This document shows, in pieces, positions 8,738 to 13,470 of a DNA stretch of 64,000 nucleotides (its first letter is position 1; each line of letters begins with the position of its first letter). The stretch covers positions 10,778,460 through 10,842,459 of the forward strand of contig NC_057718.1 of the NCBI RefSeq assembly GCF_004010195.1. The letters run 5' to 3'. The translations under genes and the position numbers were made by a program. Under the pieces are notes generated by a model. It saw only the letters and a program-made list of their open reading frames with translations, was not told the DNA's origin and searched no databases. The stretch is from Chiloscyllium plagiosum. Lineage: Eukaryota.

Positions 8738-10782
8738 AATTGAGGGACAGGATGTACATGTATTTGGAAAGGCAAGGACTGATTAGGGATAGACAACATG
8801 GTTTCGTGTGTGGGGAAATTATGTCTCACAAACTTGATTGAATTTTTTGAAGAAGTAACAAAGAGGATTGAGGGCAGAGCAGTAGATGTGATCTATATGG
8901 ACTTCAGTAAGGCTTTCGACAAGGTTCCCCATGGGAGACTGGTTAGCAAGGTTAGATCTCATGGAATACAGGGAGAACTAGCCATTTGGATACAGAACTG
9001 GCTCAAAGGTAGCAGATGGAGGGTGGTGGTGGAAAGTTGTTTTTCAGATTAGAGGCCTGTGACCAATAGAGTGCCACAAGGATCAGTGTTGGGTCCACTA
9101 CTTTTTTTTGTCAAATGATTTGAATGAGAGCACAAGAGGTACAGTTAGTACATTTGCAGGTGACATCAAAATTGGACAGCGAAGGAGGTTACCTCTGATT
9201 AGAACGGGATCTTGATCAAATGAGCCAGTGAGCCAAAGAGTGGCAGATGGAGTTTAATTAGATAAATGCAAGGTGGTGCATTTTGGGAAAGCAAATCTTA
9301 GCAGAACGTATACACTTAATGGTACACTTACTCAGAGAGTAGTAAGGGCATGGAACGCTTTGCCTGCAATGGTAGTAGATTTGCCAAGTTTAAGTGCATT
9401 TAAGTCGTCATTGGACAGGCATATGGACGTGCGTAGAATAGTGTAGGTGGCTTGGACTTCAGATTAGTATAAAAGGGCGGCGCAACATCGAGGGCCGAAG
9501 GGCCTGTACTGCGCTATAATGTTCTATGGTAAGGTCCTCGGGAGTGTTGCTGAACAAAGAAACCTTGGAGTGCAGGTTCATAGCTCCTTGAAAGTGGAAT
9601 TGCAGGTAGATAGGATAGTGAAGAAGGCATTTAGCATGCTTTCCTTTATTGGTCAGAGTATTGGGTACAGGAGTTGGGAGGTCATGTTGCGGCTGTACAG
9701 GACATTGGTTAGGCCACTTTTGGAATATTGCGTGCAATTCTGGTCTCCTTCCTATCGAAAGGATGTTGTGAAACTTGAAAGGGTTCAGGAAAGATTTTAC
9801 AAGGATGTTGCCAGGGTTGGAAGAATTGAGCAATAGGGAGAGGTTGAATCGGCTGTGGCTGTTTTCAATGGAGTATTGGAGGCTGAGGGGTGACCTTAGA
9901 GGTTTATAAAACCGTGAAGGGTATAGAGTCAGAGTCATAGAGGCGTACAGCACAGAAACAGACCCTTCGGTCCAACTCGTCCATGCTGACCTGGTATCCT
10001 AACCCAATCTAGTCCCTCTTGCCAGCACCTGGCCCATATCCCTCCAAATTCTTCCTATTCATATAACCATCCAGATGCCTTTTAAATGTTGCAATTGTAT
10101 TGGCCTCCACCACTTCCTCTGGCAGCTCATTCCATACACGTTCCACCCTCTACATGAAAAATTTGCCACTTAGGTCCCTTTTTTGTTTATATCCCCTCTC
10201 ACCCTAAACCAATGCCCTCTAGTTCTGGACTCCCCCATCCCAAGGAAAAGACTTTGTGGCTAGCATAAATAGACAAAGTATTTTCCCTGGGATGGGGGTA
10301 GAACATAGAACATAGAACAATACAGCACAGAACAGGCCCTTCGGCCCATGATGTTGTGCCGAACTTCTAACCTAGATTAAGTACCCATCCATGTACCTAT
10401 CCAAATGCCGCTTAAAGGTCGCCAATGATTCCGACTCTACCACTCCCACGGGCAGCGCATTCCATGCCCCCACCACTCTCTGGGTAAAGCACCCACCCCT
10501 GACATCTCCCCTATCCCCCTATAGTCCAGAGCTCGAGGGGATAGATATAAAAGAGACCTCTGGCAACCTTTTCACACAGAGGGTGGTGTGTATGGAATGA
10601 GCTGCCAGAGGAAGTAATGGAGGCTAGTACAATTGCAACATTTAAAAGGCAACTGGGTGGGTATATGAATAGGAAGGGTTTGGAGGGATGTGGGACTAGA
10701 TTTGATTGGGATATCTGGTTGGCATGGACGAGTTGGACTGAAGGATCTGTTTCCATGCTGTACATATGACTCTATGACTCTC
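8738..10782 (+). mobile_element. 5'-truncated CR1 LINE (RT region to 3' end) with nested CR1 3'-end fragments
   Basis: CLTNLIEFFEEVT...YMDFSKAFDKVPH; LVRPLLEYCVQFWSP; nested pieces at ~9325-9525 (+), ~9930-10255 (-), ~10300-10510 (-). Confidence 0.9.
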
Positions 10783-11046
10783 ATCTCTCTTTCTGGTCTT
10801 CACAGATTTAAGATTAGACAACATTTGCTGGACGAGTGTGGCAAGATTTGTGGTTGTGCCTACTACTGTCTTGGTTGAGCTCAGGAGTTGAACAGTGAAA
10901 AATAACCAGGTCTCACCAGGTCACAAAAAGGTTGAGCAGTGGCAGAGGTGACAGAGTACTTGCTTACCTACACTTGGAGGAGATACCAGAAATATTACAG
11001 AGCGGAACAAATGTGTTTCCTAATTGGACAAAAAGCTATTTGTGAT

Positions 11047-13138
11047 AAAAGCAAATTACTGTGGATGTTGGAACCTGAAACCAAAAGAGAAAATGCTGGA
11101 AAATCTCAGCAGGTCTGGCAGCATCTGTAAGGAGAGAAAAGAGCTGATGTTTCAAGTCTAACTGACCCTTTGTCAAAGCTAAAAAACAAGGGAGAAATAG
11201 GGAGGTATTTATACCAGGCTGAGAGAAGGTGAGTCATGGCTCCAGAAGCAAAGGTAGCAATAAAGAGGTGATAATGGTGCATAGAGAGATTATAGGGAGA
11301 TTGGGAGCTGTGAATGACCAAGGCTGAAGCCAGTGCTATGTGACAAAATATGTGGGGGATAGGTGAAGCAGAGGCAAAGTGGAAAACAGGGGAGAAGGGT
11401 AGCAAAGGGGGAAGAGGAGAGGAAAATGGTGATGAGAGAGTGGGGAGCGAGAGAAAGAGAGACAATCAAGAAATAGGAGGTACAGAACATAAAGATATTT
11501 TTATTTAATTTATTTTAATTATGGAGCAGAATGAAAACAGAGGGGTCAAGATGGGATAATCATCTGAAGTTGTTGAATCATTGTTGAGACCGGCAGGCTG
11601 TAACGTGCCTAGTCGGAAGATGCGATGCTGTCCCTCCAGTTTGCGCTGAGTTTCACTGGAACATTGCAGCAGGCCAAGGACAGACATGTGGGCATGGGAG
11701 CAGGATTGTGTGTTGAAGTGGCAAGCCACAGGAAGATCCGGGACCTGATTGAATACAGACCGAAGCGATCACCCAGTCGACGTTTTGTCTCTCCGATATA
11801 GAGGAGACCACATTGGGAGCAATGAATGCAATAGACCAAATTGAAAGAGGTACAAGTGAAACGCTACTTAATCTGAAATGAGTGTTTGGGGCCTTGGATG
11901 GTGAGCATGGAAGAGGTAAAGGGGCAGGTGTTGCATCTTCTGCGATTGCATGGGAAGGTGCTGTGTGTGATGGGTGAGGTGTTAGGTGTGATGGAGGAGT
12001 GGACTAGGTTGTCCAGGAGGGAACAATCTCTGAGGAATGCAGACTGGGGAGGGCAGGGAAGATGTGTTTAGTGGTGACGTCATGTTGGAGTTAGCGAAAA
12101 TGGCGGAGGATTATTCTTTGCATGTGAAGGCTGGTGGGGTGAAAAGTGAGAACAAGAGGGACCCTATCCTTGTTCTGGGAGGGGAAGGAGGGGGTGAGGG
12201 TTATGGTGCGGGAGATGAACCGCACACTGTCGCGAGCCCTGTCAACAACTGTAGGTGGGAAGCCACGGTTGGAGAAGGAGCACATATTAAGAGCACCACT
12301 TTGGAAAGTGGCCTCATTGGAACAAATGTGGCAGAGGCGAAGGAGCTGAGGTACGAAGAGCTGTAATCCAGATAGCTGTGGGAATCAGTGGGCTTGTAAC
12401 GGATATTAGTGGATGGACTATTGCCGGAAATGGAGACCGAAAGGTCAAGGAAAGGAAGGCAAGTGTCAGAGATGGACCAGGTGAAGGTGATGGAGGGATG
12501 GAAATTGGAAATGAAGTTTATGAATTTTTTGCAGGTCAGGACGAGACCATGAAGCCGCACCAAAATAGTCATCGATGTACCGATAAAGCAGTTGTGGGAG
12601 GGGACCCGGGTAGGCCTGGAACAAGAAATGTTCCATATACCCCATGAAAAGGCAGGCATAGCTAGGACGCATGCGGGTACCCATTGCTACACCTTTTCAT
12701 TCTGCTCTGTAATTTTATTTCATTTAAAAAATTTTTTTTTCACTTCTGTACCTCCTATTTCTTGTCTCTCTTTCTTTCGCTCCCCACTCTCGTGTCACCT
12801 TTTTCCTCTCCTCTTCCCCCTTTGCTACCCTTCTCCCCTGTTTTCCATTTTGCCTCTGCTTCACTCATCTTCCCTTCTCTCCTCCCCCGCCCCCCCCCCA
12901 ATATTTTGTCACATAGCACTGGCTTCAGCCTTGGACATTCACAGCTCCTAACCTCCCTATAATCTCTCTATGCACTGTCATTATCACCTCTTTATTGCTC
13001 CCTTTGCTTCTGGAGCCATGACTCACAATCTCTCAGTTTAGTGTAAATACCTCCCTATTTCTCCCTTTTTTTTTAGCTTTGACAAAGGATCAGTTAGACT
13101 CGAAACGTCAGCTCTTTTCTCTCCTTACAGATGCTGCC
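11047..13138 (-). mobile_element. Penelope-like element (RT + GIY-YIG remnant) with long inverted terminal repeats
   Basis: MGTRMRPSYACLFMG...RYIDD, YKPTDSHSYLDY, VYCIHCSQCGLLYIGETKRRLGDRF; ~430-bp inverted repeats (~11117-11545 vs ~12695-13138); 15-bp TSD aaagctatttgtgat at 11032-11046 and 13139-13153. Confidence 0.92.
13075..13113 (+). ncRNA. Hammerhead ribozyme motif with variant core UUGACAA (U3:A8)
   Basis: agct-TTGACAA-a-ggatc(agtta)gactc-GAAA-cg-TC-agct; second copy on the - strand at 11142-11180 has the same TTGACAA. Confidence 0.6.
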
Positions 13139-13169
13139 AAAGCTATTTGTGATTTTTTTTCTGTAAATA

Positions 13170-13470
13170 GTTAGAGATGTACAGCATGGAAACAGACCCT
13201 CCAGTCCAACCTGTCCATGCTGACCAGATATCCCAACCAGATACTTCAATTAGATTTTCTTTCATTCCTCTAAACTCTAATGAATACAGGCCCAATCTGC
13301 TAACCCTTTCCTTATAAACCAACTCCTTCATCTTACGAATCAACCTATTGAAACTTCTCTGAGCTACCTTCCTGTAAATGTATCACTCCTAAAGTAGATT
13401 TTCCTTGAGTATCCTATATGCAGTCTTCCCAATCCCTGGAGAACTGTAACAAAACTTGCCTGCTTTCCTA
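13170..13470 (-). mobile_element. CR1 LINE fragments
   Basis: CR1 tail plus ORF YKERVSRLGLYSLEFR. Confidence 0.7.

Follow-up and report, generated by a model that had tools for sequence, protein, structure and literature searches.

The hammerhead motif in the window

The window analysed here is a stretch of 64,000 nucleotides (nt) of Chiloscyllium plagiosum (NCBI RefSeq assembly GCF_004010195.1, contig NC_057718.1, positions 10,778,460 to 10,842,459 of the forward strand). It contains a single insertion of a Penelope-like element (PLE), and the two pseudo-long terminal repeat (pseudo-LTR) copies of this insertion were each found to contain a hammerhead-type motif with U at position 3 and A at position 8 of the core. 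The motif of the inverted arm was found at 13075-13113 on the plus strand by direct reading, pattern search and alignment, and reads AGCT TTGACAA A GGATC AGTTA GACTC GAAA CGTC AGCT. The motif of the sense pseudo-LTR, found by direct reading and pattern search, is present at 11142-11180 on the minus strand and reads AGCT TTGACAA A GGGTC AGTTA GACTT GAAA CATC AGCT in reverse complement. The initial annotation had reported U3:A8 strings in both terminal repeats, and direct reading confirmed them. A 28-nt pattern comprising the core, stem II and GAAAC had 2 matches in the window, with 0 expected from 100 shuffles.

In the plus-strand copy, helix I was formed by 13075-13078 with 13110-13113 (AGCU with AGCU, 4 base pairs), followed by the core U3-A9 at 13079-13085 (U3 at 13079, A8 at 13084), an extra A at 13086, stem-loop II at 13087-13101, G12-A14 at 13102-13104 (G12 at 13102), A15.1-U16.1 at 13105-13108, C17 at 13109 and A1.1 at 13110. 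In the minus-strand copy, A2.4 was at 11180, U3 at 11176, A8 at 11171, the extra A at 11169, C17 at 11146 and A1.1 at 11145. The predicted cut site, C17/A1.1, lies between 13109 and 13110 on the plus strand and between 11146 and 11145 on the minus strand.

The 5' core box, U-U-G-A-C-A-A, fits the canonical C3-U4-G5-A6-N7-G8-A9 at positions 4, 5, 6 and 9 and departs from it at positions 3 and 8, where U3 and A8 are Watson-Crick partners in both window copies. The 3' core was present as GAAA, followed by C-G-U (C-A-U in the left arm) and C17, and these columns were invariant across the aligned families. Stem II contained 5 base pairs with a loop of 5 nt, closed by G10.1-C11.1, and the family majority was GGGUC-AGUUA-GACUC. 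One unpaired A was present between A9 and G10.1, and loop III was absent. The tetrad A15.1 C15.2 G16.2 U16.1 (ACGU) is palindromic; the right arm has it, as does the family majority, whereas the left arm has ACAU instead. Both CpGs of the motif were lost in the left arm, where C11.1 is changed to U, leaving G-U at 10.1-11.1, and G16.2 to A. In the right arm G10.3 is now an A, which gives an A-C mismatch at 10.3.

Copies of the family in the genome

The genome searched was that of the window itself (3.56 Gb); position-by-position reads refer to the first 100 matches listed for each pattern, and boundary reads to 36 instances from 30 loci. The motif was found to have 5,614 matches at up to 2 mismatches, versus 0 for the reversed control. 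These matches are the independent support for the motif. The two window motifs, treated in the initial annotation as a double sighting, are pseudo-replicates, because they lie in one duplication-flanked insertion and come from one event.

For the core states, positions 3, 7 and 8 were left free and the neighbouring bases were used as the anchor, which gave 2,534 matches. TTGACAA was common to about 97% of them. Among the first 100 listed, 95 had TTGACAA and 2 had TTGATAA; position 3 was C, A and G once each, and G8 was found in none. The family consensus is thus U3/C7/A8, and a CTGACGA consensus, the outcome that would have told against the initial annotation, is ruled out. Over all 2,534 matches, G8 was present in 28 (17 TTGACGA, 8 TTGATGA, 1 GTGACGA, 1 CTGACGA and 1 CTGATGA) and C3 in 35, of which 32 were CTGACAA. 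The mismatched states numbered 25 for U3G8 and 33 for C3A8. C3 and G8 occurred together in 2 matches, versus 0.39 expected under independence.

The CpG sites of the motif served as controls for decay. Here the pattern was anchored only downstream of the predicted cut site, which gave 3,895 matches, and the first 100 listed were counted by hand. At C11.1-G12 the counts were CG 60, TG 16 and CA 14, and at C15.2-G16.2 they were CG 49, TG 25 and CA 18, whereas in the first 100 listed of the 2,534 matches positions 7-8 contained CA in 98 and CG in none. Since the controls keep CG in 49-60 of 100 copies and positions 7-8 in 0 of 100, TTGACAA is the state of the source. U3/C7/A8 is therefore shown to be the state of the source element or elements behind at least 5,600 copies. 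The route by which the source gained A8, CpG-type or otherwise, is immaterial for function.

The motif was also covered by contigs from three public runs under three organism codes; these runs may be DNA. In the bin 11166-11183 the contig depth was 3,108, 2,596 and 16,091 in the three runs, and neither at 11176 (position 3) nor at 11171 (position 8) did any alternative letter reach 10%. At 11148 and 11154, the CpG sites lost in the window copy, the contigs read the family-state C and G (plus strand). Neither piled-up starts or ends nor informative joints were reported for the three runs, although RNA ends would not be visible in contigs. In one raw RNA run (single-cell polyA), 0 reads were placed on the window stretch. 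Many contigs of the three runs left the stretch at 11128 into other sequence, the reverse complement of which holds ...CGAAACGTTAAC...; this exit suggests that one more related family exists, arranged differently around the cut site.

Canonical sister families and the 3-8 pair

A canonical descriptor, CTGANGA-N-G...C-GAAA-SS-TC, was found at 113,930 places in the genome versus 56 for the control. With U3 and A8 in the descriptor, 1,804 places were found versus 106 for the control; the present PLE family accounted for about 92 of the first 100 listed. There is a single U3:A8 family in the genome, with about 1.6% of the intact motifs.

In the main canonical families the motif is CTGA(A/T)GA-A-GGGC-loop-GCCC-GAAACGTC. 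These families were found to share with the U3:A8 family the extra A, GAAACGTC and the post-cut-site blocks GATGCTGCC.GACCTGCTG..TTCCAGCA, followed further downstream by TCCAGCATCTGCAG. The likeness extends to the layout, to two classes of 3' ends, to copies starting 4-5 nt before position 3 and to head-to-head pairs. The canonical families differ in having C3:G8, N7 as A or U, a 4-base-pair stem II with a tetraloop and helix I of the type ATTC/GA(A/T)T; they are also about 20 times more numerous and keep more CpGs, and so are probably younger. The 45 nt upstream of the motif, compared by eye, appeared unrelated between families.

The sister families thus contain C3:G8 together with different, compensated sequences of helices I and II. 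For helix I, AGCT/AGCT of the U3:A8 family stands against ATTC/GAAT of one canonical family, so that three pairs are changed on both sides. The U3:A8 family keeps U4, G5, A6 and A9, G12, A13 and A14, A15.1-U16.1 and C17, as well as the extra base between A9 and G10.1, the G10.1-C11.1 pair, the 4-base-pair helix I and the palindromic ACGU that replaces helix III. In an alignment of 8 rows (3 of the U3:A8 family and 5 of other families), the 3-8 pair was CG in 5, UA in 3 and unpaired in 0, and 90.6% of cells were paired versus 75.2% in shuffles and 19-42% with a slid partner; as few independent lineages are represented, these figures are descriptive only.

The shared architecture, the homologous blocks and the covariation of helix I fit a compensated double change. 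The functional covariation proposed in the initial annotation held in part. Positions 3 and 8 are compensated between families, whereas within the family they vary independently, as the 2 copies with both C3 and G8 indicate, so that the covariation is a single between-family event and not a repeated one. A C3:G8 ancestor with the stem II of the U3:A8 family was looked for and was not seen: of the 564 matches to the CTGACGA motif, the first 100 listed were variants scattered over other families, and none of these 100 contained the 15-nt stem-loop II of the U3:A8 family.

Copy boundaries, putative transcript start and predicted cut site

In all 36 instances read at their boundaries, the copy ended soon after the motif. 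The 3' ends fell into two classes, about 80-102 or about 114-125 nt past the start of stem II, which is roughly 64 or 100 nt past the cut site; the two classes are about 36 nt apart and are the PLE 'tail' (30-40 bp). In head-to-head pairs, a long-tailed arm was combined with a short-tailed one.

At the 5' side, about 7 of the 36 instances continued into the pseudo-LTR, about 10 abutted unrelated sequence exactly at AGCT, about 6 were cut 1-9 nt further in, and about 13 were head-to-head, mostly at the AGCT palindrome. The 26 nt just upstream of AGCT had 923 matches in the genome (up to 2 mismatches) versus the 5,614 of the motif, so that the copy number steps six-fold at AGCT. Many copies start here, 35 nt upstream of the cut site, at the 5' edge of helix I. 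We infer that transcripts begin with the A of the 5' AGCT, with a TATA box about 30 nt upstream of it, and that the copies of roughly 90-140 nt are run-off complementary DNAs (cDNAs) running from internal start sites back to the 5' end of the RNA.

A pyrimidine tract and AG before the motif were also considered as a 3' splice site, of the kind that the Penelope element of Drosophila virilis reportedly contains. This reading was dropped, because AG was kept in copies with unrelated upstream sequence and the boundary therefore lies before AGCT.

Copies beginning at the predicted cut site were looked for with a tail-anchored pattern, the leading D of which leaves out places with C 13 nt upstream. 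Among the first 100 copies listed, none began at the cut site; in about 97 the 3' half of the motif was retained apart from point changes, and internal deletions were seen in about 3. One inverted arm, in L023, ended at the AGCT of the cut site. In one canonical family (family A), with 33,157 exact copies of its motif, the copies likewise start 4-5 nt before C3, form head-to-head pairs and end in two 3' classes, and at most 1-2 of the 100 tail-anchored copies listed could start at or near the cut site. Since the canonical family behaves alike, the lack or rarity of cut-site starts does not single out the U3:A8 state. The insertions of both kinds of family are copied from uncleaved RNA, and for this reason the insertion record cannot tell an active from an inactive U3:A8 ribozyme.

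Several other arrangements were observed at these boundaries. Many head-to-head pairs of short copies (among them L019, L024, L026 and L063) were joined at a palindrome at the 5' edge of helix I, which is AGCT in the U3:A8 family and GA(A/T)TC in a canonical family. The pairs fit two cDNAs made from both sides of one target site and annealed by their terminal palindromes. In L013 (plus instance) internal open reading frame (ORF) sequence, and in L010 (plus instance) early 5'-region sequence of the element, was joined directly to the starting AGCT of the motif; these joints look like template switches onto the 5' end of the RNA, or tandem starts.

The sequence after the cut site was conserved between the U3:A8 and canonical families (L001-L030, L043-L080). 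It reads as a short conserved frame (MLPDLLRFSS...), with a stop at its end in the U3:A8 family. In the same copies and in 11047-11141 on the minus strand, a GATGCTG near +17 is the reverse complement of a CAGCATC near +75, and pairing between them could give a stem across the first 3'-end class.

The insertion carrying both motifs

The PLE insertion extends from 11047 to 13139 on the minus strand and was delimited by its duplication, inverted repeats and ORF fragments. An exact 14-base-pair direct repeat, AAGCTATTTGTGAT, forms the target-site duplication, with the left copy at 11033-11046 and the right copy at 13140-13153 on the plus strand (2 matches in the window versus 0 expected). Read on the minus strand, the insertion begins with an inverted 5' pseudo-LTR copy, followed by a 3' ORF fragment and then by the sense pseudo-LTR, which carries the motif and a 3' tail. 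The inverted repeats lie at 11111-11537 and 12694-13144 and are 92-94% complementary over their best blocks. The inverted pseudo-LTR copy lies 5' in the insertion, at 12694-13139 on the plus strand, and comparison with family copies shows it to be truncated 30 nt past the predicted cut site. Inverted arms around an ORF fragment in one insertion are the pseudo-LTR layout of PLEs, in which an inverted 5'-truncated copy adjoins the unit, as described in a published account (PMC8557442). A hammerhead-type motif in the terminal repeats of a PLE, as read in the initial annotation, is supported.

The stretch from the predicted cut site to the 3' end of the element, of the long-tail class, is 11047-11141 on the minus strand. 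It contained GATGCTGCC.GACCTGCTG..TTCCAGCA and TCCAGCATC.GCAG as blocks common with the canonical sister families. A TATAAATA box at 11206-11213 on the minus strand is 33 nt upstream of A2.4 and is a putative promoter element; it also occurs in the family copies that bear a pseudo-LTR, and is 30 nt upstream in copy L090. The 3' part of the PLE ORF, frameshifted, was found from its reading frames at 11540-12696 on the minus strand, with a putative reverse-transcriptase block containing YRYIDD and a GIY-YIG-like block containing LLYIGET. The LLYIGET fragment scored 14.5 bits (E 0.045) against Pfam GIY-YIG, below the cut-off, and the YRYIDD fragment of the window had no Pfam match. In copies of the same family, RVT_1 scored 27.5 bits (E 3e-6) in L090 and 17.7 bits in L083, with a cut-off of 29.6, and an adjoining PLE fragment in L088, which is not assigned to any family, scored 22.1 bits for GIY-YIG against a cut-off of 22.6.

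A six-frame search of the genome gave 151 related matches to the ORF fragments. In L090 the pseudo-LTR and motif run on into ORFs, one of which is the RVT_1 match, and the atlas neighbours were reverse-transcriptase clusters. The long open frames of L089 and L090 in the six-frame search were rejected, as they are partly runs of N inside PLE copies. The putative reverse-transcriptase and endonuclease fragments had no sequence match among solved structures. Outside the insertion and asymmetric around it, a further inverted repeat pair was present at 10700-10765 and 13177-13242 (66 nt, 88%), which may be the ends of another repeat hosting or adjoining the PLE insertion.

Discussion

We lean towards the explanation that the motif is a minimal dimer-type hammerhead of a PLE pseudo-LTR, a lineage variant in which the core tertiary pair C3-G8 has become U3-A8. 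It would best be read as a compensated variant held by selection on the fold. Selection would have preserved the fold as positions 3 and 8 changed in concert; the step from G8 to A would be a CpG-type transition if the ancestor had C7-G8, and C3 to U would be the compensating change. The RNA may still form an active core, only as a dimer with an intermolecular ACGU/ACGU helix III, and may cut weakly between C17 and A1.1. The motif would be the first 35 nt of the transcript that presumably starts at the 5' AGCT. The reverse transcriptase would then start about 64 or 100 nt past the cut site and copy back through it, so that the RNAs that became insertions would be uncleaved.

Several results weigh against an active U3:A8 ribozyme. 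The covariation is one evolutionary event and has no statistical weight alone, and the insertion record, with no cut-site start among the 100 tail-anchored copies listed, gives no sign that cleavage ever happened. Minimum-energy single-strand folds were no better than shuffles (z 0.67 to -0.67; four folds were made, and L072, of the wrong strand, was disregarded) and preferred a rival GAC/GUC pairing. Cofolds of two copies did not distinguish the active fold, and their score was no better than that of shuffles. The Rfam hammerhead models had no match to the motif, either in the whole window at the gathering score or in 10900-13400 and 13040-13150 at E up to 10. The same models had no match at four loci of the same genome with canonical C3:G8 minimal motifs, so that the miss in the window is not due to U3:A8 and Rfam is not usable as a test for the minimal class. 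The motif also overlaps the putative transcript start and adjoins conserved blocks, and its conservation could be partly for other roles. The published PLE minimal hammerheads cleave poorly in vitro even as dimers or trimers (PMC4209133). Hammerhead mutants of an anole PLE did not impair insertion in vitro (PMC11167929), and PLE clades without hammerheads proliferate well according to another paper (PMC8557442); amplification is therefore no proof of an active ribozyme.

That the string arose in the two copies by C-to-T and CpG decay from CTGACGA, which the initial annotation had offered as a caveat, or that it is a mere look-alike, is scarcely credible. A change of G8 to A beside C7 is of CpG type, and both window copies show other CpG losses. 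However, the near-uniform TTGACAA among the anchored copies contrasts with the true CpGs of the motif, about half of which or more are intact, and the reversed control gave no match. The CTGACGA motifs were, among the first 100 listed, variants of other families. Single-copy decay as the origin of TTGACAA is refuted. A more serious possibility, though still an unlikely one, is that the hammerhead is a dead passenger, not needed for spread, and that two transitions in the source (one of CpG type) happen to re-pair an inactive or irrelevant core. The examined copies come from RNA uncut at the hammerhead site, the reported in vitro insertion of the anole PLE is indifferent to hammerhead mutants (PMC11167929), and the change is confined to one lineage, all as this explanation would have it. 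Free drift, however, should give amplified families with unpaired or damaged cores, whereas about 114,000 copies in several families hold a perfect core and the sole departure is paired on both sides. In addition, helices I and II differ from those of the sister families by compensated changes, and the U3G8 and C3A8 states are at the level of single-copy decay.

A non-catalytic role, in which the 35-nt folded leader and the following blocks are a recognition or initiation signal, a promoter-proximal element or a 5' untranslated region element, with the 3-8 pairing kept for the fold, appears quite improbable. The position of the motif at the start of the putative transcript, just before the blocks that are conserved between families and hold the two 3'-end classes, is in its favour, as are the uncleaved templates of the U3:A8 and canonical families alike. 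The authors of PMC4209133, given the low activity, allowed for 'functions other than self-cleavage'. On the other side, the invariant positions are exactly the catalytic ones of the known ribozyme, and the more canonical hammerheads of fungal and plant PLEs cleave efficiently according to the same paper. The compensated hammerhead remains the explanation that we prefer.

The U3:A8 variant reported in the initial annotation is real and is not new, as it was described as a natural covariation in 2011 and in minimal hammerheads of PLEs in 2014. Natural hammerheads were reported to show U3/A8 covariation, and cores of this kind are stated to have been proven active in vitro already (Perreault et al., 2011, PMC3088659); those examples show the same compensated C3-G8 change in natural sequences, and differ in being full three-stem hammerheads and not the minimal dimer type of PLEs. 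Minimal hammerheads were described in the pseudo-LTRs of PLEs including those of fish, coelacanth and Xenopus, and those of Schistosoma PLEs contain U3-A8 (Cervera and de la Peña, 2014, PMC4209133). The traits given for the class are the extra base between positions 9 and 10.1, G10.1-C11.1, the palindromic 15.2-16.2 and the dimer mode. Our literature search on U3-A8 or C3-G8 covariation turned up nothing beyond PMC4209133.

The Cercyon PLEs of Schistosoma mansoni, as presented in PMC4209133, are like the present family in having a minimal type-I hammerhead with U3-A8 in the pseudo-LTR, the extra base, G10.1-C11.1, a short helix I, no loop III, the palindromic 15.2-16.2 and a presumed dimer mode, and in their thousands of mostly solitary copies, with pairs on opposite strands. 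The present family belongs to another host and another PLE lineage, in a large, vertebrate-sized genome, and only here is a single homogeneous U3:A8 family present beside about 114,000 canonical copies. Stem II, compared by description only, is of 7-8 base pairs in Schistosoma, whereas it is of 5 base pairs with a 5-nt loop here.

The Poseidon PLE of Anolis carolinensis (PMC11167929) likewise contains a hammerhead at the boundary of pseudo-LTR and ORF. Its reverse transcription starts at two adjacent internal sites past the cut site, and the 30-40 bp 'tail' results from this. The RNA used as substrate is unprocessed, and RNA-seq reads ending at the cut site were reported to be absent. It differs in its C3:G8 core, and its start sites are known biochemically, whereas those of the present family are deduced from genomic 3' ends. 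Cleavage by an anole PLE hammerhead is lost with either C3G or G8C alone and is regained in part when the two are combined. The uncleaved templates of both kinds of family in the present genome agree with the anole work. According to a review, the pseudo-LTRs of PLEs contain promoters and are where transcription begins (PMC6765202).

As the initial annotation anticipated, searches requiring CUGANGA would pass over this family, the motif of which reads TTGACAA. The family adds a clean, high-copy, vertebrate-scale example to a variant so far named for flatworm PLEs, and gives a natural side-by-side comparison of about 5,600 U3:A8 and about 114,000 C3:G8 copies in one genome. The decay caveat was settled by genomic counts alone, with the CpG sites inside the motif as controls. 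What is known of hammerhead catalysis is unchanged. The copy boundaries of the variant and of a canonical family, in which the copied RNAs ran through the predicted cut site and began at the 5' edge of helix I, bear on the open question of the purpose of the PLE hammerhead. As the hammerhead would be the first 35 nt of the transcript from the pseudo-LTR promoter, and essentially every integrated copy, of the U3:A8 family and of a canonical family, comes from RNA with the bond intact, it is conceivable, though on balance doubtful, that the ribozyme does not process the transposition template but serves as a switch for self-decapping or self-inactivation, or as a folded recognition element, in which case U3:A8 would show selection on the 3-8 pair for that role.

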